Positions 2,589 through 52,272 of a stretch of 64,000 bases of DNA are shown piece by piece. The DNA comes from a virus. The notes beneath the pieces are model-generated. The model worked only from the letters and a program-made list of their open reading frames with translations. It was not told the origin of the DNA and searched no databases. The DNA is taken from positions 32,519 to 96,518 of the IMG/VR virus record IMGVR_UViG_3300042511_000631; one strand, written 5' to 3'. Position 1 is the first letter of the stretch. Every line of letters begins with the position of its first letter. Both the position numbers and the translations under genes were made by a program.

Positions 2589-3383
2589 GTGACTGAAATA
2601 ATCACAGACGCAGAACTTGTATCAAAATTTGCCGCACAGGCGATGGAGGAGCCCGAGAAAGTTATTGAAACTCGGGCACCTTCAGAGTCAGAAGTAGATC
2701 TACCGGGAGGTTTCATTGGAGTCAACCGCGAAGTGATTTTAACCGCTGAGGTTAGAGAGTTAAACGGAATGGATGAAGAGTTGATCGCTAAAGCGGGATC
2801 TTCAGCTAAAGCCTTTAACGTTCTTCTTCAGCGCGGGTTAGTAAAACTAGGTTCAGAAGATGTGACTAAGGATCAAATTGATAGCCTGTTATCAGGTGAC
2901 CGCGACGCCATCCTTATCGCTATCCGACGAGCAACCTTTGGAAACACTCTAGATCTAAACATTAACTGCCCTAGCTGTAACGCCCCGCAAACTACAAGTA
3001 TTGACCTTGTAGACGATGTTCCAGTTAAGCGGTTAGAGGATCCAATTGCGGATCGAACATTCTATGTAGAGACAAAGAAAGGCCCGGTGGGAGTTGCTCT
3101 TCCAACGGGAGTAGTTCAAAAGCGTCTTGTAGACAACATGGATAAAAGCATTGCTGAGATGAACACTGTTCTACTAGCTGGTTGTATTTTATCTGTTAAT
3201 GGTTCTCCATCTTCAGGCGCTTCAACCGCTTTAGCTTTAGGAATGGCTGATAGAACAAAAGTTCTTGACGCAATTACTGATCGTAACCCAGGCCCACGCC
3301 TTGGGGAGGTGAAGAAAGCTTGTCAGGCATGTAATGAGGATATTGAACTCCCATTAAGTTTGACAGATTTGTTTCGCTTATAG
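2589..3383 (+). CDS. Tail assembly chaperone / T4 gp26-like hub assembly protein
   Basis: Between tube and tape measure; LLSGDRDAILIAIR and two CxxC pairs. Confidence 0.7.
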   Translation: MTEIITDAELVSKFAAQAMEEPEKVIETRAPSESEVDLPGGFIGVNREVILTAEVRELNGMDEELIAKAGSSAKAFNVLLQRGLVKLGSEDVTKDQIDSLLSGDRDAILIAIRRATFGNTLDLNINCPSCNAPQTTSIDLVDDVPVKRLEDPIADRTFYVETKKGPVGVALPTGVVQKRLVDNMDKSIAEMNTVLLAGCILSVNGSPSSGASTALALGMADRTKVLDAITDRNPGPRLGEVKKACQACNEDIELPLSLTDLFRL

Positions 3384-3531
3384 CACTACTGAGTACGAAG
3401 GCATTTTAAATGAGTACGAAGTACTTACTAGAACGTTTACAGGATGGACATTGACAGAGATCCGCGCATTATCAGTTAGAGAACGATATAACTGGTTAGA
3501 GCGGGCTCAAAGACACACGGGAAGGAAATAA
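3373..3531 (+). CDS. Start-less C-terminal chaperone segment, probably reached by +1 frameshift
   Basis: +1 frame reads FAYSTTEYEGILNEYEVLTRTFTGWTLTEIRALSVRERYNWLERAQRHTGRK*; no ATG; typical second-chaperone signature. Confidence 0.6.
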   Translation, partial: FAYSTTEYEGILNEYEVLTRTFTGWTLTEIRALSVRERYNWLERAQRHTGRK

Positions 3532-5601: not shown

Positions 5602-6638
5602 GTCCTATCTTAGAACCATTAGACAACCCGCTAGTTGTAGCAACTTCAGCTACTAAAGCGGAGATTGCTGCTGCTGAAGCAATTGAGCGTTGGAAACAAA
5701 ATGAGTTAATTAGAACCGTATCGGAAGATATCGCAAATCAAACTCAATCTAGCTCTATATACAATGGTGCTGCGTTCCTAGCAACACAAGATAAGCCTAA
5801 CTCAACGCAATCTTCTGCTATTGAGTACACGGGTACCCCTACCCCAATTGATTACAAGTTTAACTTGCCTCCGCACACTTGGAGCTTACCCCTGCGCCCA
5901 GGCGAAATTGAGCCAGAAATTGTGGGCTCTAGTACCGTTTACACAAATGATTCTTTCCATGGTTTCCGCCGTGGTCGCATTTGGTACTGGCAAACATCGG
6001 CTGATATCAGCAAAACTACTAGCGATAACTCTGCTGCTACCAGCGGAGCTGAGAAGCTATTACTTGACCGCAACTACGGCTTCCAGTTCCTATGGAACCC
6101 TGATGCTATCTCAGTAAACGTCTCTAGAAACATGGACATAACCCCAAACAGCGCCGATACTCTCCGCGTTGTAGCTGGTGTTTTTCCTGGTCAAGAAACC
6201 GTTTCTTTAACTATTGTTCTAGACCGCACTAATGACTTTGCTTACGCTAAAGCTACCGGTACTGGGGCCGCGGAGTACTACACCGCAGGATTCCCATTAG
6301 CGGCAAAACAAGATTTTAATACACAACTAAAAACATTGTTAGAGCAAGGAACAATGGCGGACTTAGAATACCTTTTCCGCGCTATTAACGGTTCTGGCTC
6401 CGGAGACAAGCAGTGGACAACACTTTTAGGAAAGAAAACAGCAAACGTTGGTTACTTACAACCGACATTGCTTGGTGTGGCTCTTGGCCCAGATACCCAA
6501 AACAACTTGTCATATGTAGGTTGGATTTCTAACTTATCTATGAACCATACTGCCTTTACCCAAACTATGATCCCTCTAAGAACAACAGTAACCATCTCAC
6601 TCGAGTGCTTCTCTGGCTCAGGAATTACGGCGGGTTAA
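5598..6638 (+). CDS. Baseplate/tube initiator protein
   Basis: FQFLWNP..ISV and tube-like motifs; synteny. Confidence 0.55.
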   Translation: MSPILEPLDNPLVVATSATKAEIAAAEAIERWKQNELIRTVSEDIANQTQSSSIYNGAAFLATQDKPNSTQSSAIEYTGTPTPIDYKFNLPPHTWSLPLRPGEIEPEIVGSSTVYTNDSFHGFRRGRIWYWQTSADISKTTSDNSAATSGAEKLLLDRNYGFQFLWNPDAISVNVSRNMDITPNSADTLRVVAGVFPGQETVSLTIVLDRTNDFAYAKATGTGAAEYYTAGFPLAAKQDFNTQLKTLLEQGTMADLEYLFRAINGSGSGDKQWTTLLGKKTANVGYLQPTLLGVALGPDTQNNLSYVGWISNLSMNHTAFTQTMIPLRTTVTISLECFSGSGITAG

Positions 6639-6640
6639 AA

Positions 6641-6922
6641 ATGGCTATCTATCGCGGATCTCGTTACGAGTACTCAACTGTTGACTACTTTTCAACTACG
6701 GTAGAGGGTGCCGATGAGCCTGTCGTTTTTTACAGCTTTTCGGATCTTGGGTATGTTCGCTACTGGCAACACACGTATGTAGAAGGCGAACGTTTAGACC
6801 AGATTGCGTATAAGTACTACCAACGCCCTCAATTCTGGTGGATCATCCCTGAGTACAACCCGGAAATTACAGACTTAAACAACATTCCCGCGGGAACCGT
6901 TTTAAGAGTGCCAAATGTTTAA
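6641..6922 (+). CDS. LysM-like baseplate protein (T4 gp53/tail X-like)
   Basis: EGERLDQIAYKYY..WWII..NP..IPAGTVLRVP; ATG at 6641. Confidence 0.8.
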   Translation: MAIYRGSRYEYSTVDYFSTTVEGADEPVVFYSFSDLGYVRYWQHTYVEGERLDQIAYKYYQRPQFWWIIPEYNPEITDLNNIPAGTVLRVPNV

Positions 6923-8261
6923 TTACATAAAGGTAAACTTCCCTGACTCAGATATACAACCAGAGGTTGTTTACTCTGCCACTATCTCTCAAAGCCGGTT
7001 TGCCCACGAAACCGCGGTAGTAAAATTTAGAGACTGGAACGTTCAATACGACATCGTAGCTCCAGGCACACCTGTCCAACTAACCCTTTATGGCATGAAA
7101 AACCGTAGAGAGTTTTATGGCTATGTGCACCACATTACCCCTGACCAAAGCCCAGGAAAAAACTTTACAGAAGTTGTAATTATTGGGGCATCTTTTCCCA
7201 TGAAACAACAATCTCAAACTATTTATAAAAACACTACAGCTGATCAAGTCATTCAGTCAATTGCTACAAAATACAATTTTGTTGCCTATACCGTTCCGCA
7301 TCCACGCATTTACCCACAGGTGTCCCAAGCTGGCCACACTGATTGGGAATTTATGGTCCGTTTAGCTATGCAATCTGGGTACTCTTTGCGTACAGAGAAC
7401 ACCGAACTTTATTTTCAACCCGTTATGGACGACTTTACAAATTACAGAGAAAGCGCCCCTAAGTTTATTATGCGACAAGCCACCGATCCGGACGGCTCAA
7501 CCATTTACTCTTTTAAACCTATTATTGGTGAGTCATTAGACTTTAAGGACTCAACTAAAGCGGCTGTTGCAATCAGCGGCGTAAATCAAAATGATGGCAC
7601 TAGAATGGCCATTACCACTCAAATTAGAAATATTAAAACTAGAAAAAAGCAACAAATTGAGTTTTTTGACAAATTTGATACTTCTGTAGTCGCATCAGAT
7701 ATTCAAACAGCTAGCTTTGAAGCAAAAGCTGCTGAAGACAAAAACTACTTTCCATATCGAGCTACTGTAGAAGTTTTAGGCGACCCTACCTTGCGCCCAG
7801 ACTTGCCTGTATTTTTAGAGGGCATCGGGGACAACTATTCTGGTTACTGGGTCATTTTAAATACAGAGCATAAGATTATTGAAACTGAGCGGAATCAACA
7901 GACCTACACAACTGTGTTAACTGTAGGTATTGACTCTTTAGGCGCCGCTGCGTCGTGGAGTGACAACAAGACAATAAACTCCCCTGACTACATTCCGCGT
8001 AGAAAAATTATTCCGGGCGTAAAACAAACAAAGGTTGTTCCCGCTACCGCCTTAAACACCGTATCTCCTGCTGCGAGTCCTCAGCTAAAAAGCAGCTTTG
8101 GAACTTTACAAAATAGATCAAAGCCAAGCCTTAACCGCCGAGATCAATCCCCAACAGTTTGGAAGAGCACTACCTCTTCGCTTAATAACATAATTGTAGA
8201 AACTAAAAAGTCTCCAATTATCCTTGATCGGTTGCTAAAACGAGCGGCGTCTAACTTATGA
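6915..8261 (+). CDS. Baseplate hub (gp27/GpD-like)
   Basis: QAGHTDWEFMVRLA, GDPTLRP, YSGYWVI motifs. Confidence 0.75.
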   Translation: MFNYIKVNFPDSDIQPEVVYSATISQSRFAHETAVVKFRDWNVQYDIVAPGTPVQLTLYGMKNRREFYGYVHHITPDQSPGKNFTEVVIIGASFPMKQQSQTIYKNTTADQVIQSIATKYNFVAYTVPHPRIYPQVSQAGHTDWEFMVRLAMQSGYSLRTENTELYFQPVMDDFTNYRESAPKFIMRQATDPDGSTIYSFKPIIGESLDFKDSTKAAVAISGVNQNDGTRMAITTQIRNIKTRKKQQIEFFDKFDTSVVASDIQTASFEAKAAEDKNYFPYRATVEVLGDPTLRPDLPVFLEGIGDNYSGYWVILNTEHKIIETERNQQTYTTVLTVGIDSLGAAASWSDNKTINSPDYIPRRKIIPGVKQTKVVPATALNTVSPAASPQLKSSFGTLQNRSKPSLNRRDQSPTVWKSTTSSLNNIIVETKKSPIILDRLLKRAASNL

Positions 8262-8500
8262 CCTTTGACAAGCGTTTTTATGGACTATATAAAGGTATTG
8301 TTGTAGACAACAACGACCTAGAGTTGCGAAAGCGCCTTACGGTTAAGGTTCCTCAAGTAACTGGGGACGCTGTAACGGGTTGGGCCGAAGTCTGCATCAA
8401 TGGTAGCGGGGTTACCGCGCCAAGTGTAAACGACGTTGTATGGATATCCTACATAGCAGGAGACCCTAATTTTCCAGTATGGATAGGAGTAACTACATGA
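8258..8500 (+). CDS. Baseplate spike OB-fold protein (gp5/GpV N-terminal-like)
   Basis: FYGLYKGIVVDNND..VKVPQV..GWA..P..VWI..GDPNFPVWIG. Confidence 0.8.
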   Translation: MTFDKRFYGLYKGIVVDNNDLELRKRLTVKVPQVTGDAVTGWAEVCINGSGVTAPSVNDVVWISYIAGDPNFPVWIGVTT

Positions 8501-8904
8501 TTGAAAAAGCAATAACGTTGCCTTTTTCCTTTGATTCAACCGGGGCGGTATCGCACTCAACGGATCAAAAGAAAATATTACAAGACCGCGTTGTTCTTGT
8601 GGTTATGACCAAATTAAGAGAACGAGTAATGCGTCCTACATTTGGCAGCGAAGCTAGTAACTCATTGTTTGAGAACGTAGACTCAGCCGCAAATATGATC
8701 CGTCAAACTATTGGCGCGGCGTTCTCTAATTGGCTAAAAGGTTTACTTTTGACCAACGTTGAAATTTATGTAGATCCTTCTGAAGGCTATTTAATTGCGG
8801 AAGTGTTCTATAAGATTGATCTACAAGAGAATGAGCAAAGTGTAAGGATAAAAACGGCTATCCTTAGCCGAACAGGCGACGTACTTCTGGAGGTAAATAA
8901 CTAA
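8497..8904 (+). CDS. Baseplate wedge gp25-like protein
   Basis: ERVMRPTFGS motif; ATGA overlap with the upstream gene. Confidence 0.85.
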   Translation: MIEKAITLPFSFDSTGAVSHSTDQKKILQDRVVLVVMTKLRERVMRPTFGSEASNSLFENVDSAANMIRQTIGAAFSNWLKGLLLTNVEIYVDPSEGYLIAEVFYKIDLQENEQSVRIKTAILSRTGDVLLEVNN

Positions 8905-10652
8905 TGGCTACTAACTACATACCGCAGGTGGATTACACCTCCCGCGATTACTCGTCTATTCGCCAAGATTTGATTGATTTAATCCCAGAATTTACCCCTA
9001 CTTGGACTAACCGCGATCCAGCTGACTTTGGTATTACTATCTTAGAGATGTTCTCTTACATGGGTGACATTTTAAATTACTATATTGATAAATCAGCTAA
9101 CGAAGCATTTATTAGCACAGCTAGCCAACGCGACAGCGTGCTCCAGTTGGCTAAGCTTTTGGGATACACCCCAACAACCAGCACAGCTTCTACTGTTACA
9201 TTAACTTTTGCCGACACCCGCGGTGGTACCCCAGCTACCGCTTTTGTGGTGCCAGCTTTGACTCAGGTAGCAACATCTGCGGTAACAGATAGCAATACAA
9301 ATCAAATTGTTTTTGAAACCAATTCTGCCGTAACCGTGCCCATAAACGGAACAATTACAGTTTCCGCCAAACAGGGCAAAACTATCGGGATCTCTCCTGT
9401 GGAAAAAATTGGTGAGTCTAACGGACAAGCTAACCAAGTATTTAAATTAGCTCAATCGCCTGTAATTAACGGCAGTATTTCAGTCACTGTTGGCGGGGTT
9501 AACTATTACGAAGTTTCTTATTTAATTGACTACAATAGCTACGACCCAGTGTTCTCTACCTACACAAACGCCGATAGCGTCACATATGTTTTGTTTGGCG
9601 ATAACATCAGCGGCCGTATTCCACCAAATAACGCAGAAATTTTTGCCGTATACCGTATTGGCGGAGGCGCCGAAGGTAACGTAGCAGCAGGCACAATTAA
9701 ATCTATTATTAGCCAAGCTGCTATTACACCTACTGCTTCTGGTTTAACTGTGCTTAACCAGTACATATCTGCCGCTAATGACGGCTCAGCTTCTGGCGGA
9801 GCTGACGCGGAGTCTACTGACTCTATTCGTATTAACGCTCCGTTAAGCTTACGCGCTTTAAACCGCGCCGTATCTCTATCTGACTATTCAGCTCTTTGTG
9901 TACAAGTTAGCGGTATTGCAAAAGCCATAGCTATTGCTGAAATTTATAGCAGCATTACTGTGTTCTTTGCTCCTTACGGTGATCGCGGAGTAGAATCTGA
10001 CAACGTAACCCCTACCGCAACCTTTAATACACTAAAGGCGACAGTACTAAGTTATATGGCTGACAAAGTTCCAGCTAACACCACAATTACATTCCAACCA
10101 CCAAGCTATGTAACTGCGCTAATAGACGCAAACGTTACATGCCTACCTCAATACAAACAAAACTTAGTAGAGGCCGGCGTAAACACAATCTTGGCAGAAC
10201 TATTTGCTTTTGACAACGTAGCGTTTGCTGACCGCATTACCCTACAAGATGTAATGTCTGCTATTTCATCTGTAGATGGTGTGGCGTACTCGCAAATAAC
10301 AAAACTTGTCCGCGAAGATGAAGACATCACATTAACCGTAACCAACAAGGTTCTTTCATCAAATGTAGCAACATTAACTGTAGGTTCCTCACACGGCATT
10401 ACTGTTGGAAATACAATTCTGGTTTCTGGAGTAGACGCTACGTTTAACGGTACGTTTGTAGTTACCGCAGTAGCATCCACTACAATTTCTTATGTATGTA
10501 TTGCTACTAACGTGTCTTCTACCGTAGTCTCCATTACTGATGGTGTAACAGTGCTAAAAGTTACTGACATCTTATGTTTAACAAATGAAATCCCAGAGAT
10601 TGACTACGAAACAAATCTTAATTTGACATTAACGGGAGGTATTCTTAACTAA
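8904..10652 (+). CDS. Baseplate wedge J/gp6-like protein
   Basis: DYTSRDY, EAFISTA, GGADAES..IR, RAVSLSDY motifs. Confidence 0.9.
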   Translation: MATNYIPQVDYTSRDYSSIRQDLIDLIPEFTPTWTNRDPADFGITILEMFSYMGDILNYYIDKSANEAFISTASQRDSVLQLAKLLGYTPTTSTASTVTLTFADTRGGTPATAFVVPALTQVATSAVTDSNTNQIVFETNSAVTVPINGTITVSAKQGKTIGISPVEKIGESNGQANQVFKLAQSPVINGSISVTVGGVNYYEVSYLIDYNSYDPVFSTYTNADSVTYVLFGDNISGRIPPNNAEIFAVYRIGGGAEGNVAAGTIKSIISQAAITPTASGLTVLNQYISAANDGSASGGADAESTDSIRINAPLSLRALNRAVSLSDYSALCVQVSGIAKAIAIAEIYSSITVFFAPYGDRGVESDNVTPTATFNTLKATVLSYMADKVPANTTITFQPPSYVTALIDANVTCLPQYKQNLVEAGVNTILAELFAFDNVAFADRITLQDVMSAISSVDGVAYSQITKLVREDEDITLTVTNKVLSSNVATLTVGSSHGITVGNTILVSGVDATFNGTFVVTAVASTTISYVCIATNVSSTVVSITDGVTVLKVTDILCLTNEIPEIDYETNLNLTLTGGILN

Positions 10653-13186
10653 TGTCACGTTACGGTATTAATTATTACGGCTTAAGTACGTACGGCTCTT
10701 CCGCCGCCGTTCAGTACGTAGCTGGGGCTTTTACTGCCCAATCTAGAGGGTACGGGTTTATACGTATTGAATGGGAAAACCCATCTGGCGCGTGGTCAAA
10801 TGTTCGGTTAATAAGAAACTCTTACGGTTACCCCGTAAACGCGTATGACGGCGACGTATTAGTCAATGCGGCAAGAGAAAACAATTTAACAGAGTATGAC
10901 GATTCAACGTTAGCAAAAGGCGCATTTTATTACTACTCTTTATTTTTGTATGACACCTTAACTTATAGCTGGGTTCGTGCGGGAAATGTAACGGGAGTAT
11001 CTGTAAAAAATTACAATTACGGTGCCAATATGTACAAATACATGCCGGACATTTACAAACTTACTCAAGCCTACGTGGCCTCATCCGAATGGGATAACGA
11101 CGACCTTTACAACTTTTTATCTTTATTTGGATTTCAACTTGACCACGCTCACACAATAACTAATTTATTAGTAAATCGGTACGACTTAGAAAAAGTTGGC
11201 GGAGTTCTAATCCCGTCATTACTACAGCAGTTTGGCTTAACGTACGAGCCTGAAATTGGTTACCAGCAATCCCGCATCCTTGTACGTGACGCAGTTCAAA
11301 TTGGCAAGAAAAAGGGAAGCGCAGAAGGCTTGCGTCAATTTATGAAAGCTTTTACAGGGTACGCAGTACCTCAACCAATTGCTGGAACCCCAAATCCAAG
11401 TGTAGACGGATTAGTGGTAGGCGAAAATATAATGCTTGATTACAACGATTCTTCATTTGAAGAGTCCGTTGGGCAATGGGCTTCATCTGACAGTACGGCT
11501 ACCTTGACCCATTTAAAAAAGATGGACATTACAGCCGTATCTTTAACCTCTAACGTTGTCCGTTTAATTATTGGATCTCATGCGTTTAAAGTTGGAAACA
11601 AAATTAACACCTCTGGGTTTACTTACCCACTGTTTAACACGTTAGGTACTCAAAAGACTATTACCGCAATTGATGCTACGTCAATTTATTTTGCGTTAAC
11701 TGCCAACGATGTGGCGCAACTACCGGCGTATAACAACTCCACTTCAAGTTACCCAGTAGTTATTCCCTACCCAACACCTTGGGATGAGCCAACAACTTTA
11801 ACTCAATACCCAAATAAACAAAACGGTATTTTGGCTATAAAAAATAGCACGGCGTCAACAGCTACAATTAAAATTGAATGCGGGTTGCTTAACCCTGTTC
11901 TAAAAGGCGTTCCAGTAACCACAGGTTTAAATTATGTGTTTAGTGTGTACTCAGCTGCTGGGTCTACTCTTAAAGGAATTGTTCTTAAAATTAGATGGTA
12001 TAGCCGTCTAGGTGATTTTCTTTCAGAGTCAACAGGCAGCTCAGTAAATAACGTAGTTGGCGATTTCTCAGCTCGTCCTGTTGTTTCGGACGGTGCCCCA
12101 GCTGACGCTTATTACGCTGTACCTGTAATAACAGTTGTTAGCGCCGGAGCAACATCGCTTAATGAATACCATTATTTTGATTGCGCTCAATTTGAACAAT
12201 CAGCTTCAGTCACAGACTTTGATGAAGCGCGCCAAATACATATGACGTTAAGAGCTTCTAGAATTAACGAATTGCTAAACCCTCACTTTGCCTCACCGTT
12301 AACCCCCTGGGCGGTTACAGGAGCATCAACTTCCGTAGATGCAACAACAAAAGAGCCAGACGTTGACGTATTCTCAATTGCCTTTAAATCTTTAACTTCA
12401 AATGTAGCAATGCTTGAAACATCCGTAAGTCACAACTTGCGTCCGGGAGATGTAGTTGTCGTAAGCGGGGTTGGCGCACCATTTGATGGAACTAAAACTA
12501 TAGCAACAGTTAGAGTTAACGCGGCTAACCCAACGCAAGTGTCAAAAACTTTTACCTACGCTGTTACAAACACAAATATTGTTAGAGTGGCCGCAACAGG
12601 TACAACTTATAAATCTGGAGATGCTTTAAAACTTACCGCCTCTGGCACGTCGGTGTTAGTAAAATCAACAACAACAACTGCAGATTTAATGCCAATCCAT
12701 TACCCAAGCACCTCTTACACATTTAGCGTATACGCTCAAGTTGCAACGGGAACAGAAACTGTAACCCCGGCTATTGTTTGGTATGACTCTTCTAAAGTTG
12801 CAATAGGTTCACCTATATCTGGAACCGCTACAGCAATTACCGCAACAGGTACTGCTTGGAATCGCCCATCTGTAACAGCCATCGCACCAAGCAACGCAGC
12901 ATACGCGCACGTGCAACTGTCATGGACAGCTGTAATTGGCGAAGAACTTTGGCTTGATGCAGCTTTGTTTGAAAACACTTCATCAATATCAACATACTTT
13001 GATGGAAGCTACGGCCCAGCTACAGCTAACGACTTGTTTTGGGAAGGCGGGGTAGTAGGTGGTTCCCGCAGCCATTACTACAAGCATCGGTACGCTATTC
13101 AAGATCGTTTGGCGGGAGCAGCGTTAGACTCTCAGTTAAACACGGGAACCACTGTAGCTATTTACTTGGCTCAACCAAAAACGTAG
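10652..13186 (+). CDS. Baseplate wedge/tail protein (gpI/gp7-like) with beta-rich carbohydrate-binding-like repeats
   Basis: LLQQFG..RILVRDA..KKGS core followed by repeated YTFSVY..WYD..FE domains. Confidence 0.65.
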   Translation: MSRYGINYYGLSTYGSSAAVQYVAGAFTAQSRGYGFIRIEWENPSGAWSNVRLIRNSYGYPVNAYDGDVLVNAARENNLTEYDDSTLAKGAFYYYSLFLYDTLTYSWVRAGNVTGVSVKNYNYGANMYKYMPDIYKLTQAYVASSEWDNDDLYNFLSLFGFQLDHAHTITNLLVNRYDLEKVGGVLIPSLLQQFGLTYEPEIGYQQSRILVRDAVQIGKKKGSAEGLRQFMKAFTGYAVPQPIAGTPNPSVDGLVVGENIMLDYNDSSFEESVGQWASSDSTATLTHLKKMDITAVSLTSNVVRLIIGSHAFKVGNKINTSGFTYPLFNTLGTQKTITAIDATSIYFALTANDVAQLPAYNNSTSSYPVVIPYPTPWDEPTTLTQYPNKQNGILAIKNSTASTATIKIECGLLNPVLKGVPVTTGLNYVFSVYSAAGSTLKGIVLKIRWYSRLGDFLSESTGSSVNNVVGDFSARPVVSDGAPADAYYAVPVITVVSAGATSLNEYHYFDCAQFEQSASVTDFDEARQIHMTLRASRINELLNPHFASPLTPWAVTGASTSVDATTKEPDVDVFSIAFKSLTSNVAMLETSVSHNLRPGDVVVVSGVGAPFDGTKTIATVRVNAANPTQVSKTFTYAVTNTNIVRVAATGTTYKSGDALKLTASGTSVLVKSTTTTADLMPIHYPSTSYTFSVYAQVATGTETVTPAIVWYDSSKVAIGSPISGTATAITATGTAWNRPSVTAIAPSNAAYAHVQLSWTAVIGEELWLDAALFENTSSISTYFDGSYGPATANDLFWEGGVVGGSRSHYYKHRYAIQDRLAGAALDSQLNTGTTVAIYLAQPKT

Positions 13187-26405: not shown

Positions 26406-26736
26406 GGGTCAAATAGAGTCAAAGAAGCATGAGGTACGGCTAGCCAAGGAGATTGGCGGAACGCGTAATGCGGGAAGCGGATCGTTTTGGAGTCGTAAAG
26501 GTGATGTCCGCAGTAGCGATCTACTTATTGAACATAAGTGGACGGGCAAAGCTTCCTTCACTGTCAAAGCGACAGTTTTGGAAAAGATTGTTAGAGAAGC
26601 AATTCTTGACAATCGGACGCCTGTCCTCGGCTTCAGTCTCAATAATGAAAATTATGTGATGCTCACTGAAGATGATTTTCTGGAACTACGCCAGAATCTT
26701 CAGGAGTGTACTTGTACCAAGACAACGAGCACGTAG
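26395..26736 (+). CDS. PD-(D/E)xK nuclease, Hjc-like resolvase
   Basis: HE..GSGS..KGDV..IEHK; ATG at 26395. Confidence 0.65.
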   Translation: MKSKGQIESKKHEVRLAKEIGGTRNAGSGSFWSRKGDVRSSDLLIEHKWTGKASFTVKATVLEKIVREAILDNRTPVLGFSLNNENYVMLTEDDFLELRQNLQECTCTKTTST

Positions 26737-27029
26737 AAAGCTGGCGCTACAACGCTAAGTGTCGCGGCATGGATACTGAATTATGGTATCCCCCAAGAGA
26801 TAAAACCAAATACAAAACTATTGCCGAAGTATCTAAAGCTGTGTGCTACGGCAAAGATGGTTTACCAGAGTGCCCTGTTCGTAAGCAGTGCTTGTTGTAT
26901 GCAGACAAGATGGATGAGCAGCACGGTATCTGGGGCGGTATGTCACACCGCGAACGTAACGCATTAAAACGTAAAGCTACAAAAATGGGTTACTCTTTAA
27001 AAGATTGGGTAGAACGAAAGAAACCGTGA
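26706..27029 (+). CDS. whiB: WhiB-family Fe-S transcription factor
   Basis: W..AKC..C..CPVRKQC..GIWGG..ER. Confidence 0.9.
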   Translation: MYLYQDNEHVESWRYNAKCRGMDTELWYPPRDKTKYKTIAEVSKAVCYGKDGLPECPVRKQCLLYADKMDEQHGIWGGMSHRERNALKRKATKMGYSLKDWVERKKP

Positions 27030-45840: not shown

Positions 45841-46110
45841 GCCAATATGGGCATATATAGCTATTGTTACCTAATCGTTATAATTGAGGGCTAGAGGGCT
45901 ACTTGGAAGCCTTGCCTCTCTCTCACTCTCTCTCTCTAGCTCATACACACTCTTATCAGCTAAGACTGTCCGGCAACCGGCAGATAATCTGGCCGCGCTG
46001 CTGGGTTGGCCGGTGAGCGGCCGGCAGTAGCCCAATATCGCTAAATAGCTATATCTCTTTGTCGACAATTGGCTAGCACGCCGGCCATAGCTTTGTCAAG
46101 CATCCGGCCG

Positions 46111-46126: not shown

Positions 46127-46143
46127 CGTTGATCTCTCTCTTT

Positions 46144-46187
46144 ACCCTATCCCGAAGGGATAAGGGGAGGGTGGGTCAACACAAACA
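46144..46187 (+). repeat. Hairpin/G4 repeat copy 1
   Basis: ACCCTATCCCGAAGGGATAAGGGGAGGGTGGGTCAACACAAACA. Confidence 0.95.
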
Positions 46188-46251
46188 AGTTGCCGAGCTG
46201 CGCCGGTCGCCCGGGCAGCTCAGCAAGCTGGCAGTGTTAGCTAATTCATCG

Positions 46252-46818: not shown

Positions 46819-46994
46819 AGCTTCCCCTCAATATTCGTCGAATAGCACTCTTTACAAGTGCCTTCCTCAACCTCATGGAACTCTTTGTAAAAGACATCCT
46901 CAAGCTCACCTTTCTCATCGTACTCAGCTTCGTTATAGCTATTCTCACAATAAGTAAAGCGGCGGGTATTACCACAATCTAGACACTTAGGCAT
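46815..46994 (-). CDS. 59-aa acidic zinc-ribbon protein
   Basis: MPKCLDCG..CKEC; GGAGG RBS. Confidence 0.6.
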   Translation of the reverse strand: MPKCLDCGNTRRFTYCENSYNEAEYDEKGELEDVFYKEFHEVEEGTCKECYSTNIEGKL

Positions 46995-47277
46995 TTGTAA
47001 CCTCCAGTTTAGTAGTCCAGTCCGACATATCAGGGTAGTTCAGGCCGAATATAAAGCCACCGCCATTGCCTTCCTCATCTTGCGATATCTCTATCTTGAT
47101 TAGCTTGCCATTAGCAAGGCGCACCGAAAACTGCGGGAAGGAATCCTCACTACACTCAAGGCCAATTTTGCCCTTAAAGCTAATTATCTTTGCGCCCTCT
47201 AATTGGCTATAGTAACGCTTGTAAAACTCAGCAGCTTTAGCTGCGTGGTGATCGTTTAACGCACTCATCTCTCTCAT
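46987..47277 (-). CDS. Hypothetical protein
   Basis: SQDEEGNGGGF motif; first gene of its cassette. Confidence 0.6.
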   Translation of the reverse strand: MREMSALNDHHAAKAAEFYKRYYSQLEGAKIISFKGKIGLECSEDSFPQFSVRLANGKLIKIEISQDEEGNGGGFIFGLNYPDMSDWTTKLEVTNA

Positions 47278-47309
47278 CTCTCTATCAGTTGTGGTATCTC
47301 CACGGTCAT

Positions 47310-47348
47310 AAATTACTCTCTTTCAGCTACTTATCAACCGACACGCCG
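47310..47348 (-). promoter_or_regulatory. Cassette promoter with GACAC box
   Basis: CGGCGTGTCG then TTGATA-16-TAATTT. Confidence 0.55.
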
Positions 47349-47434
47349 CACTTTCGCAGCTATTTTTTTATAACAATATTGTTATCGACTCTCTCGGCGT
47401 GTCTACTTGACATTCCGGCCGACTCTCTCTCCAC

Positions 47435-47478
47435 ACCCTATCCCGAAGGGATAAGGGGAGGGTGGGCCAACACAAACA
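47435..47478 (+). repeat. Hairpin/G4 repeat copy 2
   Basis: ACCCTATCCCGAAGGGATAAGGGGAGGGTGGGCCAACACAAACA. Confidence 0.95.
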
Positions 47479-47506
47479 TTTGGCTTTTGGGTTTAGGCAT
47501 TTCCCT

Positions 47507-47560
47507 AAAATAAAAAGAGAAATGCCCCAGCTGCCGTCTAACAGCCAGGGCATTCTTTTC
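47507..47560 (-). terminator. Intrinsic terminator
   Basis: AATGCCC..GGGCATT stem with an A-rich left flank (U-tract on minus). Confidence 0.6.
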
Positions 47561-47580
47561 TCTGATAGGAGGAAACCTAT

Positions 47581-47862
47581 TTAATCACAACAGCCACAAC
47601 ATTCTACGCAGACCGGTTGATTATCTTTAATATGAGTCCGGCAAGCATACTCACTCATATTCATATCTGGATTCCGGCAGTCCTCACAGATGATCTCCGC
47701 TAATTGCTGCCATGTCATATCTCTTAAGTGCGGGGGTTCATCTTCATCTACATGAGTCCGATAATGGACTATCAGATCACTAGAGGTAGAGAAGTAACCA
47801 AAGCAATACTCACAGACTCTAGTTACCACAGCAACCCTCCCCATTATGGATCTCTTTAACAT
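47581..47862 (-). CDS. C2H2 zinc-finger plus Cys-cluster protein (true start likely ~47830-47844)
   Basis: CEYCFGYFSTSSDLIVHYRTH; CEDC..C..H..CVECCGCC. Confidence 0.65.
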   Translation of the reverse strand: MLKRSIMGRVAVVTRVCEYCFGYFSTSSDLIVHYRTHVDEDEPPHLRDMTWQQLAEIICEDCRNPDMNMSEYACRTHIKDNQPVCVECCGCCD

Positions 47863-47957
47863 CTAACCACCGTAGCACTTCACCGTCATAGACATCGGCG
47901 GTAAAGTTCATAATTGCGTTTAACCATTTTTCATCGATCTCAAGGGTGACTCTGTAG

Positions 47958-48377
47958 TTAGGCACTTGGCACCTCACTATGAGTCGACACGTATGAGTTC
48001 GCGCCCGGAACTACAACACTATTTAACTTGATAATCGCCTTATGAGGGCACGGGCAATCGGGGGTGGGCACATACTCCTCTTTCCAATAAGTAGTGATCT
48101 CCATTAGAGAGTCGCACTCGGTACAAAGATATTGGTGCTTAACCCATGCGCCAAAGTGTGTCTTATTGACCTTAGATACCAAGCCAAGTTCAGCGATCTG
48201 CGGAGAGAGTTCGTCAATCTCTTCATCTAACTCTACACGAATAGATATATAGTCATCATGGTCTTGATTCTGTCTAAGATAGTTCAGATCTACAGCAACG
48301 CCAATAGCCACATCTAGTAGTACCATGGCATCAGGGTCACCCTGTAAATACTTTTCTGCGATCTCGCGGTTGTTCAT
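47958..48377 (-). CDS. Hypothetical protein with zinc ribbon
   Basis: CTEC..CPC. Confidence 0.6.
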   Translation of the reverse strand: MNNREIAEKYLQGDPDAMVLLDVAIGVAVDLNYLRQNQDHDDYISIRVELDEEIDELSPQIAELGLVSKVNKTHFGAWVKHQYLCTECDSLMEITTYWKEEYVPTPDCPCPHKAIIKLNSVVVPGANSYVSTHSEVPSA

Positions 48378-48422
48378 ATTCTCACCTATCAGGATAAGTC
48401 GGCATTGTTACCGACAAAGCAC

Positions 48423-48461
48423 AAGGTAGTGCCTCTCTCAGTTAATTTCAACGACACGCCG
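48423..48461 (-). promoter_or_regulatory. Cassette promoter with GACAC box
   Basis: CGGCGTGTCG then TTGAAA-17-TACCTT. Confidence 0.65.
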
Positions 48462-48523
48462 TAAAATTACTATAACGATATTGTTATAAACTTAACGGCG
48501 TGTCGCCTTGACTCTCTCTCAAT

Positions 48524-48566
48524 ACCCTATCCCGAAGGGATAAGGGGAGGGTGGGCCAACACAAAC
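48524..48566 (+). repeat. Hairpin/G4 repeat copy 3
   Basis: Identical core to copy 2. Confidence 0.95.
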
Positions 48567-48612
48567 TAATAAGCATTGAGGCTTTGGGCAAAATAGTATT
48601 TTGGCATGCCCT

Positions 48613-48651
48613 AAAAAAAAGATCGCCCCCACCGGCAACCGGCAGGGGCGA
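48613..48651 (-). terminator. Intrinsic terminator
   Basis: TCGCCCC/GGGGCGA stem plus A8 (U8 on minus). Confidence 0.75.
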
Positions 48652-48664
48652 GCTTCTATTTAAT

Positions 48665-48823
48665 TTAATCGAAATAACCTTCAGCCCACAGCCCATTTAG
48701 AAAGACTGTCGCCATAGTTAAATTACCATGTAACCAAGGGTCATCAGTATCATTAACAGTAGTTAAAGCAGACTCAATAGCAGTAACCATGTCATCTAGG
48801 TCAGCTTTGGTATATCCCAGCAT
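48665..48823 (-). CDS. 52-aa protein (not in ORF track)
   Basis: MLGYTKADLDDM..LWAEGYFD. Confidence 0.5.
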   Translation of the reverse strand: MLGYTKADLDDMVTAIESALTTVNDTDDPWLHGNLTMATVFLNGLWAEGYFD

Positions 48824-48826
48824 GGC

Positions 48827-49297
48827 TCACCAACTCGACTGGTACTCGAACGACCAGTATTGTCCATATTTTGCGGTGTGTAGGCACTTGTCAACGATAG
48901 CAATCGTATTGCTAAGGCTTTGGTAATACCAGTCATCTCGCTCAGCATTACCAAAGAAAAACCCTTCGGTAGGTTCTAGCACTCCGCCACCTTTACCGCC
49001 AGCAGGTACCAGCAACTCTAACTGGCAAGCCTCTTTAAGTTTGACTAGATCGTCAACGCTTACATAATACGGCTTACAATTATCCTCACCGCCTTGGACA
49101 TTTTCAACGAACCAGTTATGAATTGCGTTAGCCTTGCGCCAATAACCAACATTGAAAGAGATCTCCATTGACGGGGATTGCTCTGATATTTCGACTTGCG
49201 GATATAAAGCTTTTAAGCGATCAAACTCGCTTGTATCGTCTTGGTGCGACCAGCCGCTTATATATTTTTTTGCGTATAAATACATATCTAAACCCAT
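48827..49297 (-). CDS. Conserved phage protein of unknown function
   Basis: MGLDMYL, YWRKANAIHNWFV, GFFFG, YQSSW. Confidence 0.7.
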   Translation of the reverse strand: MGLDMYLYAKKYISGWSHQDDTSEFDRLKALYPQVEISEQSPSMEISFNVGYWRKANAIHNWFVENVQGGEDNCKPYYVSVDDLVKLKEACQLELLVPAGGKGGGVLEPTEGFFFGNAERDDWYYQSLSNTIAIVDKCLHTAKYGQYWSFEYQSSW

Positions 49298-49321
49298 TTA
49301 CTTACTCCTATCTAGTAGTTT

Positions 49322-49351
49322 GGTGAGCAGTTTAATCTCATGCTCAGGAGA
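49322..49351 (-). ncRNA. Small pseudoknot motif, copy 2
   Basis: TCTC-CTGAGCAT-GAGA-TTAAACT-GCTCA. Confidence 0.6.
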
Positions 49352-49360
49352 GATAGGGGA

Positions 49361-49852
49361 TTACGCCAGCGTTTCGGCAGTAATTTTTTGGTTAGCGATC
49401 TCGTTGATGGCTTCAACGATCTTTGAGTGTAGCCCGTCACGCATTTGCTGAACTGATTCGGGTGACCAGCCAGCGCGGATTACGCGTACCACTAGCAAGG
49501 CTAGTGAGTAACTAGGATCTGCCACTAGACACTTTTCTAGTGACGCCATAGCGTCAGCGGTTAGCCCTACTTCATACTGATAAAGGGCTAATACAGCGTT
49601 AAACGGGGTGCGGTGATTCTCCGCGACATTTTCTGCTAGGTAAGCAAGATATTCAAACGCGGTCATAAAGTCTTTTGACTCTACTGTGAAACCGATTAGG
49701 TAATCGCGCAACTGAACTTCATTTGCTACGGCATAACCGATAATGTCTAGTGACAATGGGCTAATGAACTTCTTATCTAAAAAACGCTGATAATTGTTGT
49801 CAATTATCAGTTTTGCCTCTGAAACAGTAGGCAAGGCTTCAATGCTTAACAT
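49361..49852 (-). CDS. DUF4192-like helical-repeat protein
   Basis: LRD..LA..Y..G..A..L..DP.YSLA.L..AG..P. Confidence 0.6.
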   Translation of the reverse strand: MLSIEALPTVSEAKLIIDNNYQRFLDKKFISPLSLDIIGYAVANEVQLRDYLIGFTVESKDFMTAFEYLAYLAENVAENHRTPFNAVLALYQYEVGLTADAMASLEKCLVADPSYSLALLVVRVIRAGWSPESVQQMRDGLHSKIVEAINEIANQKITAETLA

Positions 49853-49900
49853 TGAAATCTCCTATCAAGAGTTACTAGACCGATCTGATCTAGTAAGAGC

Positions 49901-49940
49901 AATTTAATCTCTCGCCCTGTCAATGTAAAGCGACACGCCG
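49901..49940 (-). promoter_or_regulatory. Cassette promoter with GACAC box
   Basis: CGGCGTGTCG then TTTACA-17-TAAATT. Confidence 0.65.
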
Positions 49941-49985
49941 ACCATTTAGCAATTATTTTTTTATTTTTTACGCGCCTCTCTCAAT

Positions 49986-50029
49986 ACCCTATCCCGAAGG
50001 GATAAGGGGAGGGTGGGCCAACACAAACA
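49986..50029 (+). repeat. Hairpin/G4 repeat copy 4
   Basis: Identical core to copy 2. Confidence 0.95.
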
Positions 50030-50082
50030 TATTAGGCATTGGGAAAAGAAGTTTTGGCACCCTATATAAAACGCGGGCACAG

Positions 50083-50110
50083 AAAAGCCCCGGGGGGAAG
50101 GCCGGGGCTG
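50083..50110 (-). terminator. Intrinsic terminator
   Basis: AGCCCCGG/CCGGGGCT stem plus AAAA. Confidence 0.75.
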
Positions 50111-50135
50111 ATCTGTTTATCTGATAGGGATAAAG

Positions 50136-50228
50136 CTAGTTCTCGCAATCGCTACAGGTTGGTTGGCCGTCAACCAGATGATAGCCGGTAATTTCATCTA
50201 CCGGTGAGCCACAACTCCAGCATTTCAT
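50136..50228 (-). CDS. 30-aa C4 zinc-finger microprotein
   Basis: MKCWSCG..CSDCEN; ATGA-coupled to ArdC. Confidence 0.6.
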   Translation of the reverse strand: MKCWSCGSPVDEITGYHLVDGQPTCSDCEN

Positions 50229-51103
50229 GCGCTCACCTCTTCCTTGACCTCGGCGCCTGTAATACACGCAACCGCTTTTTGCGCCTTCGCGCTCGCCTTA
50301 AAGATTAGGCTGGTGTCATTTTTTAGCGCGGTGAGCCAATTCTTTACATAAGCGCCACTATTAGGCAGATCGAATTCGATTCCCGCGGTTGATAACAGCA
50401 TACATGAGCCTAATTCTGCTACCAATTCCTCTTTGGCGTATGACTCGCAACCAAACGCGCTTGGCTTGTCTGCGGAATCCTTCCAGCGATTCACGCGTGA
50501 TTCGTGACCTGTGGAGTGAATCATCTCATGCGCGAAAGTGTAAGCATGCTCGCCTGCGCTGTCGAATTGCTTAAGTGCTGGCAAGGTGATCGAATCTGCG
50601 CTAGGTGAATAAAATGCGCCCGCTTGCTCGCGATAGTAAAGTGTAGGGCGGTTTGCGTATCCTTCCCAGATCGCGTTAATACCTTCTAAAGGTGTTACAG
50701 GCTCGCGGGTGTCTAGGTACTTACTAGGCAATTCGACACCTTCGGTTTGATCTAGGTTGAATACGCTGTCTAACTTATACATGAAGAAAGATTTAGCTGG
50801 ATCGCCCGCTGGCACTTTCTTATCTATGCGCGACATGAACACCACCTTGGTGGCTTTCTCGCCTTTCTTAACGCTTCCGCCCAATTTCTTTGCTTGGTTG
50901 AAAGTAATCCATAGCGGGCGGGAATACTCTAAACCCGCGATAGATAATAGAAGGTTATTTATGCCTTGGTAAGGTTTGCCAGTTTGTAATGATGTCGGCA
51001 TATAGCCATCGGTTGCCCAACCCTTGCGCCATGGCGCATTGCCTTGTTCTAGTTCTGCCATGATCAACCCTGTAACCATGTCCTTGATTTCTGCTTGATT
51101 CAT
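50225..51103 (-). CDS. ardC: ArdC-family antirestriction protein (ssDNA-binding plus zincin domain)
   Basis: PW.K.W, Y.GIN..LL, W.TFNQA..GG.VKKGEK, VFN..Q, AFY.P..D.I..P, HEMIHSTGH, YA.EELVAE. Confidence 0.9.
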   Translation of the reverse strand: MNQAEIKDMVTGLIMAELEQGNAPWRKGWATDGYMPTSLQTGKPYQGINNLLLSIAGLEYSRPLWITFNQAKKLGGSVKKGEKATKVVFMSRIDKKVPAGDPAKSFFMYKLDSVFNLDQTEGVELPSKYLDTREPVTPLEGINAIWEGYANRPTLYYREQAGAFYSPSADSITLPALKQFDSAGEHAYTFAHEMIHSTGHESRVNRWKDSADKPSAFGCESYAKEELVAELGSCMLLSTAGIEFDLPNSGAYVKNWLTALKNDTSLIFKASAKAQKAVACITGAEVKEEVSA

Positions 51104-51145
51104 TTCTATCCCCTATCAAAGGTCACCCGATTAGGTGATGAGATG

Positions 51146-51185
51146 AAGGTATTCTCTATCTCTATGAATTACAAGCCACGCGCCC
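51146..51185 (-). promoter_or_regulatory. Cassette promoter
   Basis: Degenerate box GGGCGCGTGG then TTGTAA-17-TACCTT. Confidence 0.6.
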
Positions 51186-51214
51186 ATTTATTAGGTAACG
51201 ATTAGATAACGATT

Positions 51215-51258
51215 TAATCCACAGCTTTATACACAGGCTGTGGATAACCTGTGGATAA
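51215..51258. promoter_or_regulatory. Cluster of four DnaA boxes
   Basis: TAATCCACA, TTATACACA, TGTGGATAA, TGTGGATAA, spaced 3/3/2 nt. Confidence 0.8.
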
Positions 51259-51266
51259 CTCTCTCC

Positions 51267-51310
51267 ACCCTATCCCGAAGGGATAAGGGGTGGGAGGGCC
51301 AACACAAACA
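51267..51310 (+). repeat. Hairpin/G4 repeat copy 5 (loop bases swapped)
   Basis: ACCCTATCCCGAAGGGATAAGGGGTGGGAGGGCCAACACAAACA. Confidence 0.95.
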
Positions 51311-51341
51311 TTAGGCATCGGGAAATATTATTTGGCGCCCT

Positions 51342-51373
51342 AAAAAAAAGAACCCCCGCTGGGTGCGGGGGCT
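51342..51373 (-). terminator. Intrinsic terminator
   Basis: CCCCCGC/GCGGGGG stem plus A8. Confidence 0.8.
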
Positions 51374-51390
51374 CGATCGATAGGGTTTAT

Positions 51391-51495
51391 CTAAACAGCT
51401 TCACAATCATGTCCGTAATACCACTCACTAGCCTCATTTTCGTTGGCCAGATTAAATATCTTCCAACAGTGCGCGCATCTAATAACAGCTTTCAT
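51391..51495 (-). CDS. 34-aa zinc-binding microprotein
   Basis: CAHC..HDC; AGAAAGG RBS. Confidence 0.6.
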   Translation of the reverse strand: MKAVIRCAHCWKIFNLANENEASEWYYGHDCEAV

Positions 51496-51520
51496 TTTTT
51501 TACCTTTCTAAAGTTGATGT

Positions 51521-51550
51521 GGTGAGCCTTTTAAACCCATGCTCAGGGGC
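51521..51550 (-). ncRNA. Small pseudoknot motif, copy 3
   Basis: GCCC-CTGAGCAT-GGGT-TTAAAAG-GCTCA. Confidence 0.6.
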
Positions 51551-51555
51551 TAGTG

Positions 51556-51693
51556 CTATAACTGCGCTAACAAGCCGTTGTATTCATCCCATGTAATTTG
51601 CTTGGTGTAAAACTGAATTCCTAGTGCTATTTCTTTTTGTTTGCGATCTTCCGGGCCGGAAACAAAAGTTTCGTACCAAGTAGCGTAATCCAT
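51556..51693 (-). CDS. 45-aa protein
   Basis: AGAAAGGA RBS; MDYATWYETF. Confidence 0.55.
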   Translation of the reverse strand: MDYATWYETFVSGPEDRKQKEIALGIQFYTKQITWDEYNGLLAQL

Positions 51694-51716
51694 TTTATAA
51701 TCCTTTCTAGTAAGAG

Positions 51717-51746
51717 GGTGAGCCTTTTAAACCCATGCTCAGGGGT
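51717..51746 (-). ncRNA. Small pseudoknot motif, copy 4
   Basis: ACCC-CTGAGCAT-GGGT-TTAAAAG-GCTCA. Confidence 0.6.
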
Positions 51747-51753
51747 GGGGATC

Positions 51754-52116
51754 TTAGTAGTCTAGAGTTTCGTAATTCTCTAGGTAAGCGATATCCGATT
51801 CGGCAGCGGGGGTGCTGTAAATGCGGATAGATGAAGGAACCATGTCGTAAAGGTTTTCATCGGCAAGTTCGTAAGCCTTTTCAGATGAGCGGGCTTTTAC
51901 AGTAATTTCAGCGGTGTAAAGGAAAGAAACCTTTACAGGGAACTCAGTTTCTAGCCCCTCAAGTCCTAGGCTTTCTAGGAACTCATTTGCGGTGTCCTCG
52001 TCAATGTCATTGTCATTAACAAAGTCAATGAAGGTGGTGCGAACCTGCTCCTTGTAATCAACCAAGGCGTTACGAGTTGCGTTGAGTAACGCAATCGTTT
52101 CTGGCGCGATGTCCAT
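51754..52116 (-). CDS. Acidic hypothetical protein
   Basis: ATG 52116 after TGATAGGGG. Confidence 0.65.
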   Translation of the reverse strand: MDIAPETIALLNATRNALVDYKEQVRTTFIDFVNDNDIDEDTANEFLESLGLEGLETEFPVKVSFLYTAEITVKARSSEKAYELADENLYDMVPSSIRIYSTPAAESDIAYLENYETLDY

Positions 52117-52163
52117 TTTATCCCCTATCAAGAGATTAAGTACCAGCGGTTGCTGATAGGTGT

Positions 52164-52205
52164 ATTTTGACAGGTAGCAAGTAGTGAGTCAATAGCGACA
52201 CGCCC
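52164..52205 (-). promoter_or_regulatory. Cassette promoter with GACAC box
   Basis: GGGCGTGTCG then TTGACT-17-CAAAAT with extended TG. Confidence 0.65.
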
Positions 52206-52256
52206 ATGTCGTATCATCGTTATAAGATCGTTATAAATGACCCCCCCTAGGGTTAA

Positions 52257-52272
52257 TCGAACGCCTGTTCGA
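52257..52272. promoter_or_regulatory. Actinobacterial LexA SOS box
   Basis: TCGAAC-GCCT-GTTCGA, a perfect match to TCGAAC-N4-GTTCGA. Confidence 0.75.

Follow-up and report, generated by a model that had tools for sequence, protein, structure and literature searches.

Candidate WhiA boxes beside the predicted promoters of small gene cassettes in an uncultured freshwater phage of actinobacteria

The window analysed in this work is a stretch of 64,000 nucleotides, bases 32519-96518 of the IMG/VR virus record IMGVR_UViG_3300042511_000631, and it carries a cluster of short intergenic boxes, CGACACGCC, beside the predicted promoters of small leftward gene cassettes. The motif is in excess over chance, its position beside the promoters is fixed and it is conserved in related phages. 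Judged from its match to published consensus sequences, we consider it probable that the CGACACGCC(G) boxes are sites for the host regulator WhiA on the cassette promoters, which would place the cassettes under the WhiA/WhiB cell-cycle control of the host, with activation as the most likely effect. In Actinobacteria, M. tuberculosis among them, WhiA and WhiB are essential regulators of the cell cycle.

The record is a complete genome of 96,518 bp with direct terminal repeats and a GC content of 44%. It encodes a contractile tail sheath, distantly related to that of Streptomyces phage BRock, and a replication module with PolA, RecA and a class II ribonucleotide reductase. The phage sequence is contained nearly complete in many lake-water metagenomes, and WhiB, for which the phage carries genes, is restricted to Actinobacteria and the phages that infect them (PMC6282962, PMC10914622); the source is therefore an uncultured freshwater phage of actinobacteria. 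A host lookup with the phage WhiB against bacterial genomes gave only generic WhiB matches, in Actinomadura and similar genera.

Boxes and predicted promoters of the leftward cassettes

Five exact matches to CGACACGCC were found in the window, four on the plus strand (47339, 48452, 49931 and 52196) and one on the minus strand (48497); the mean expected from 100 dinucleotide shuffles was 0.30, and none of the shuffles reached five. A sixth copy with one mismatch, AGACACGCC, lies at 47396 on the minus strand. All six copies are intergenic, in the spacers of leftward genes, and fall within a 4.9-kb span (47.3-52.2 kb); no exact CGACACGCC occurs elsewhere in the complete 96.5-kb genome. The 8-mer GACACGCC occurs seven times in the 96,518-bp genome, with six of the seven located within 7% of its length. 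Both the GACAC core and GACACGCC are present in 6 of 6 copies, exact CGACACGCC in five and exact CGACACGCCG in four. The four plus-strand sites, the inverted partners of two of them and a degenerate copy near 51177 had been pointed out in the initial annotation, and on reading the sequence we recovered every one of them. The boxes and the sigma-A-type promoters next to them, which are all predictions from sequence and of which the proximal ones are read on the minus strand, are as follows.

47339..47348, plus strand: box CGACACGCCG matching the WhiA consensus, GACAC core on the template strand of the leftward promoter
47310..47337, minus strand: predicted promoter GGCGTGTCG-g-TTGATA-16-TAATTT of gene 46987-47277, box 1 nt upstream of the -35
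47396..47404, minus strand: inverted partner box AGACACGCC (8/9), plus-strand TTGACA next to it at 47407-47412, no -10
48452..48461, plus strand: box CGACACGCCG matching the WhiA consensus (sequence match)
48423..48451, minus strand: predicted promoter GGCGTGTCG-TTGAAA-17-TACCTT of gene 47958-48377, box directly abutting the -35
48496..48505, minus strand: inverted partner box CGACACGCCG, plus-strand TTGACT next to it at 48508-48513, no -10, then a 60-nt hairpin repeat
49931..49940, plus strand: box CGACACGCCG matching the WhiA consensus, without partner box, A/T-rich tract 49950-49969 upstream
49901..49929, minus strand: predicted promoter GGCGTGTCG-c-TTTACA-17-TAAATT of the DUF4192 gene 49361-49852
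51176..51184, plus strand: degenerate box CCACGCGCC (7/9), 1 nt upstream of the predicted -35 of the ArdC-like gene
51145-51174, minus strand: predicted promoter TTGTAA-18-TACCTT of the ArdC-like gene 50225-51103, with the degenerate box in the equivalent place
52196..52204, plus strand: box CGACACGCC matching the WhiA consensus, then C (sequence match)
52164..52192, minus strand: predicted promoter GGCGTGTCG-cta-TTGACT-17-CAAAAT of gene 51754-52116, with (TGt) before the -10

The four proximal boxes lie 0-3 nt upstream of the predicted -35 and 23-26 nt upstream of a -10-like hexamer; they span about -37 to -48, and their GACAC core is on the template strand. The four minus-strand promoter readings thus bear out the earlier statement that the GTGTC core is 1-4 nt upstream of each leftward -35. 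In two cassettes a second box in the opposite orientation follows 35-48 bp further upstream, with a palindrome between the two boxes. These partner boxes are followed after 2-3 nt by a plus-strand TTGACA or TTGACT, and no TANNNT is present 16-19 nt downstream of that -35-like hexamer, again as first described. A plus-strand promoter at the partner boxes was therefore rejected: in neither the window nor the relatives is there a TANNNT at a suitable distance.

Agreement with the WhiA/WhiB2 consensus and occurrence in other genomes

In M. tuberculosis, both chromatin immunoprecipitation sequencing (ChIP-seq) and in vitro IDAP-seq of WhiA yield GACACGCC, and ChIP-seq of WhiB2 gives a motif identical to that of WhiA (PMC13473873); an earlier large dataset gave CGACACGCCGn (quoted in PMC13473873), and in M. 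smegmatis mcdR is activated by WhiB2 via cGACACGc (PMC9040748). When this phage was taken together with three relatives, C was found to precede 30 of 34 GACACGCC sites and G to follow 27 of 34, giving the consensus CGACACGCCG. It agrees at all ten specified positions with the mycobacterial consensus. The proposed link to WhiA is strengthened by this result, as beyond the core the whole 10-mer fits the published WhiA/WhiB2 consensus and the box position is fixed beside promoters in related phages; from these two features we infer that WhiA would bind the boxes. The accompanying caution, that the longer 9-mer might hint at another protein, loses its force as an argument against WhiA because the WhiA/WhiB2 consensus itself accounts for the full 9-mer. 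A coincidence with an independently derived 10-mer consensus is unlikely, which supports the WhiA identity.

Relatives of the phage were retrieved via a conserved 60-nt repeat found in the spacers of the cassettes.

46134-46193, 47425-47484, 48514-48573, 49976-50035 and 51257-51316: five copies of a 60-nt repeat, just downstream of each leftward terminator

Three of the relatives (G002, G005 and G001), all of which encode whiB, have 11, 9 and 7 copies of GACACGCC, respectively, clustered in the equivalent cassette region, and 0-3 copies of the reversed control word. The box was found in two contexts. In class 1, with 14 cases from three phages, an operator of the ATAAC-N6-GTTAT type, or a direct-repeat version of it, is followed by 8-10 nt, GGCGTGTCG, 23-26 nt, TANNNT and the gene; in class 2, a hairpin repeat is followed by GAGAGAG, sometimes TCAAGG, and then CGACACGCC. 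In this phage and the three relatives, and in further low-GC viral contigs too, the TANNNT offset peaks 24-27 nt after GGCGTGTC and that of TTG at +3 nt; in the phage and three relatives TANNNT falls in the 24-27 nt interval for 35% of the boxes versus 7% of random positions. The -35 hexamers beside the box in G002 are poor (TTGGTG, TTTGCC, CTGGAG), which fits activator-dependent promoters.

As a separate observation, a second conserved word, TGTCGG(TG), occurs at about -28 to -22 of box-bearing promoters in relatives (L019, which is G002, at 5194-11057; L017 at 5631 and 6267; L018 at 590). It falls inside the -35/-10 spacer and shares CGACA with the WhiA box; the window promoters do not have it.

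The same material bears on the idea, which we regard as extremely improbable, that the boxes belong to cassette-boundary or recombination sequences and are irrelevant to transcription. Class 2 boxes are physically joined to the cassette-bounding 60-nt repeat, and metagenome contigs link repeat to repeat with whole cassettes skipped, which speaks for that idea. However, the proximal boxes keep their distance to the -35 and -10 and not to the repeat; box 49931 is about 35 nt from its repeat copy with the A/T-rich tract between them, and the spacer of box 52196 has no repeat copy. Moreover, five further relatives (G006-G010) have the repeat with only 0-1 box each, so that the box is not simply a component of it.

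Outside the close relatives, a first loose pattern used on IMG/VR, GTTAT-N8-16-GGCGTGTCG, returned mostly single and probably chance matches, together with some loci that held 5-9 boxes. A wider IMG/VR scan gave further low-GC contigs with 5-9 boxes each and recurrent GGCGTGTCG-NN-TTGACA. In an unrelated phage of 33 kb and 58% GC (L143, IMG/VR record G314, complete), three promoters at 8110, 8444 and 8928 have the form CGACACGCC-N3/4-TTGAC(A/G)-17-TATATT, with GACAC on the non-template strand, the orientation seen in the S. venezuelae sepX promoter; whiB is not present in this multi-box phage.

On the bacterial side, five Actinomycetia genomes of 1.3-1.4 Mb (L032-L036), taken as examples of streamlined actinobacteria and not as the proven host, keep GGCGTGTCG at syntenic sites. 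At position about 1501 it precedes TATCTT by 25 nt ahead of a PIN-PhoH (PhoH2-type) gene, which is the class 1 geometry, and further syntenic copies precede a DUF4193 gene and rpsL; these may be possible core WhiA targets of streamlined actinobacteria. The WhiA of one 1.3-Mb Actinomycetia genome matches S. venezuelae WhiA (8DY7) with an E value of 1e-164 and is near-identical to it in the C-terminal DNA-binding region. Among 300 Actinomycetia genomes, many have the 9-mer 2-5 times more often than the reversed-word control; those of 1.3-1.5 Mb show no overall excess of the 9-mer, only a few conserved sites. The set of 300 includes four unpublished genomes (G030, G035, G042 and G255), on which no claim rests.

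These comparisons make it very unlikely that a phage-encoded DNA-binding protein reads the 9-10-mer and that its identity with the WhiA consensus is coincidence or mimicry. An unrecognised DNA binder could be among the many small leftward and rightward open reading frames (ORFs) without a family, and the boxes do co-occur with a phage-specific operator-like repeat. However, besides the low chance of matching an independently derived consensus, the box is invariant across viral contigs of 36-58% GC while the neighbouring operator words and half-sites vary, which is more readily explained by a conserved host factor than by a phage-specific one, and the word and its distance to a -10-like hexamer are both kept in bacterial genomes. 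No WhiA helix-turn-helix domain is encoded among the phage proteins.

Mode of action of the boxes and the phage WhiB-like proteins

WhiA acts as a monomer and recognises GACAC through its C-terminal helix-turn-helix, in a manner similar to that of sigma region 4 at the -35, and WhiB bridges WhiA to sigma-A region 4 (PMC10243135). WhiA sites are found in either orientation and with variable spacing among targets, and WhiA together with WhiB2 activates promoters in vitro (PMC10243135, PMC3781837), though WhiA can activate or repress (PMC3781837). At the phage boxes, host WhiA would bind as a sequence-specific monomer together with a WhiB-type iron-sulfur protein docked on primary sigma region 4, the four proximal boxes being those that abut the predicted -35 of separate leftward cassettes. 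Among the box-linked cassettes would be that of the DUF4192 gene, and that of the ArdC-like anti-restriction gene with its degenerate copy only. Transcription of the cassettes would thereby be tied to the WhiA/WhiB state of the host, and the two opposite boxes may pair with the proximal ones across the AT-rich, operator-like palindrome between them. In the absence of DNA, WhiA and WhiB do not associate; the textbook pair is sigma and WhiB. The direction of regulation we likewise infer: activation is favoured because the box is at a class II-type activator position, because the box-linked -35 is weak in a relative and because validated mycobacterial promoters with the GACACGCC-type motif are activated.

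The closest known system is that of the sigma-A promoters co-activated by WhiA and WhiB (WhiB2), such as S. venezuelae sepX (PDB 8DY7/8DY9) and M. tuberculosis dnaE1, dnaB and ftsZ. The phage promoters resemble these in having the same word (GACAC core, extended GACACGCC/CGACACGCCG) just upstream of a primary-sigma -35 and in the availability of a WhiB-type protein, which here is phage-encoded too; an A/T-rich tract is located upstream of some boxes, where the C-terminal domain of the RNA polymerase alpha subunit sits in sepX. They differ in that the sites are on a virus and are predicted to drive anti-restriction-type cassette genes, not division or replication genes, and in that some boxes form inverted pairs around an operator.

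Several results weigh against activation by WhiA or against the WhiA identity itself. In sepX, the only solved complex, the non-template strand carries GACAC, and a stretch of about 7 bp whose minor groove is contacted by WhiB separates it from the -35; the window boxes have GACAC on the template strand only 1-4 nt away and therefore do not show this geometry, and such a placement might clash with WhiB or favour repression. In S. venezuelae, WhiA represses about as often as it activates, regardless of orientation (PMC3781837). The -35 hexamers of the window are close to consensus as they stand and may not require activation, and the partner boxes with their orphan -35-like hexamers are unaccounted for by a simple activation model. 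Finally, the cultured phages that are distant relatives by tail sheath (BRock, pSt2308, Bumble and GMA6) show no enrichment or clustering of GACACGCC.

Most of these points would suit a different role for WhiA, in which it binds the boxes and its effect is negative or titrating. WhiA would then either repress the cassettes until WhiA/WhiB is displaced, for example by phage WhiB, or the many boxes on replicating phage DNA would form a sink for WhiA/WhiB-sigma-A that shuts host division genes, with the partner boxes as pure docking sites. Insulation would be a further conceivable role of the boxes. The GTGTC core is placed where WhiB touches DNA in sepX, about half of the S. venezuelae regulon is repressed by WhiA in any orientation, the window core promoters look strong unaided, and GGCGTGTCG-NN-TTGAC(A/T) without a -10 is kept beside the hairpin element in several related phages. 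We nevertheless regard such a role as rather unlikely: six sites per genome make a small sink unless the copy number is high, and both the weak -35 hexamers of G002 and the activation of the validated mycobacterial promoters fit a positive effect better. A more elaborate version, which we consider quite unlikely, is that the paired boxes serve as docking sites without initiation, so that the replicating 96-kb genome draws WhiA and WhiB-loaded sigma-A holoenzyme off the host division and replication promoters; phage DNA would thus arrest the host cell cycle, and phage WhiB would time the proximal promoters.

Whichever way the boxes act, the phage has two genes for WhiB-like proteins.

26706-27029 of the window, plus strand: WhiB-like gene, in the replication module near PolA, RecA and the class II ribonucleotide reductase
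3268-3450 of the genome, outside the window, minus strand: second WhiB-like gene (PF02467, E 1.3e-17)

The whiB reported earlier at 26706-27029 is thus real: the ORF matches Pfam Whib PF02467 with an E value of 1.4e-17, aligns with WhiB1 (5OAY) and S. venezuelae WhiB (8DY7) at about 1e-11, and has the Whib domain, the four Cys ligands and the GIWGG turn of a Wbl protein. Its second and third Cys are spaced C-X8-C, an insertion of six residues when compared with WhiB1 and the WhiB of S. venezuelae. Of the DNA-contact residues of S. venezuelae WhiB it keeps S75, R77 and E78, not R67 and R80. With their Cys ligands and GIWGG, the two Wbl genes are like those of mycobacteriophage TM4 and freshwater actinophages, in which phage WhiB has been described as acting on host genes or used as a marker gene (PMC10914622, PMC6802176). 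They differ from the published phage WhiB in that WhiA boxes on the phage's own promoters would offer a target in cis, and the one encoded at 26706-27029 has C-X8-C in place of the usual C-X2-C. Because its gene sits in the replication module, the phage WhiB would be expected later than the first gene products, and it might take the place of host WhiB at the cassette promoters; the multi-box phage L143, however, has no whiB.

No paper describing WhiA boxes on phage DNA was found in the literature, and no target on phage DNA has so far been known for whiB, a hallmark gene of actinobacterial phages. If the boxes are WhiA sites, phages that are abundant in lakes may time their first genes, including anti-restriction-type ones, by the growth and division state of the host, and phage WhiB may act on the phage's own promoters. 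The boxes would also be natural variants of WhiA-box geometry, in both orientations and several spacings, for studying the mechanism of activation.

Operators, repeats and gene content of the cassette region

Operator-like elements accompany the boxes.

47370..47385, no strand: perfect 16-bp palindrome ATAACAATATTGTTAT, operator-like, between two boxes
48472..48487, no strand: near-palindrome ATAACGATATTGTTAT, between two boxes
52216..52236, no strand: two direct ATCGTTATAA repeats with an 11-bp period, operator-like, upstream of the 52196 box

Two spacers (47370-47385 and 48472-48487) contain the operator-like half-site AT(C/T)GTTAT as an inverted pair, and three (51196-51213, 52216-52236 and 45863-45887) as direct repeats of 11-bp period. 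One palindrome fits the motif of mycobacterial McdR, AATnACAnnnnTGTnATT, at 10 of 12 specified positions, which is a resemblance only; McdR and WhiB2 together form a feedback loop (PMC9040748). The reading of the ATAAC-N6-GTTAT operator by a host McdR was rejected, as the word is not enriched in the five small actinobacterial genomes and its best matches there are inside a coding region.

Each copy of the 60-nt repeat contains, on the plus strand, the hairpin CCCTATCCC-GAA-GGGATAAGGG and, after it, G-runs. The stem differs in related phages in a compensatory manner (for example AACCC-TAAA-GGGTT and CTATCCC-TAAA-GGGAATAG), which supports a real DNA or RNA structure. One metatranscriptome run and three metagenome runs gave fragmentary contigs that carry no information on strand, start site or expression. 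Metagenome contigs of related strains join 60-nt repeats from 47485 to 50007 and from 50030 to 51287, skipping whole cassettes, which fits gain and loss of cassettes by recombination at the repeats, or assembly collapse. Contigs from the metatranscriptome run, which do not by themselves show transcription, touch some cassette genes and the 60-nt repeat.

Two TGTGGATAA words, the DnaA-box consensus on the other strand, are present at 51239-51247 and 51250-51258 in the ArdC spacer, where they occupy the place that the partner WhiA box has in other spacers; a metagenome variant has three or more such boxes, and in other multi-box viral contigs (L102, L072 and L093) TTATCCACA is interleaved with WhiA boxes. 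A perfect TCGAAC-N4-GTTCGA palindrome (52257-52272), which we take to be the actinobacterial LexA-box consensus, separates the 52196 box from the rightward promoter in their divergent spacer. Putative host regulator sites thus appear to be a theme of this 5-kb region, with a LexA box and two DnaA boxes beside the WhiA boxes. In bearing consensus sites for a host global regulator, the cassette promoters are like phage promoters with LexA boxes (temperate phages), DnaA boxes (phage origins) or dependence on CRP or IHF; they differ in that the predicted regulator is WhiA/WhiB. The arrangement is also unlike a classic lysogeny switch, as no integrase or repressor is evident in the window.

The cassette region consists of successive small genes, every one with a predicted sigma-A-type promoter of its own and an intrinsic terminator at the end of the leftward unit. 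The leftward genes include the following two, and the others are mostly without family assignment.

50225-51103, leftward: ArdC-like anti-restriction gene (family assignment)
49361-49852, leftward: DUF4192 gene (family assignment)

A megablast of the cassette region against cultured phages and an Rfam scan of 41.5-56.5 kb with E up to 1 both gave zero matches. The host-takeover module of Bacillus phage SPO1 is made up of many short promoter-terminator units; the cassettes are like it in their small genes with a sigma-A-type promoter and an intrinsic terminator, and unlike it in carrying an additional putative box for a host factor and an operator-like repeat at the promoters. The leftward genes also share the word TGATAGR, mostly TGATAGG, just 5' of the start codon (47283-47289, 48385-48391, 49857-49863, 51111-51117 and 52123-52129), and two terminators are followed by this word in plus orientation (47562 and 50122).

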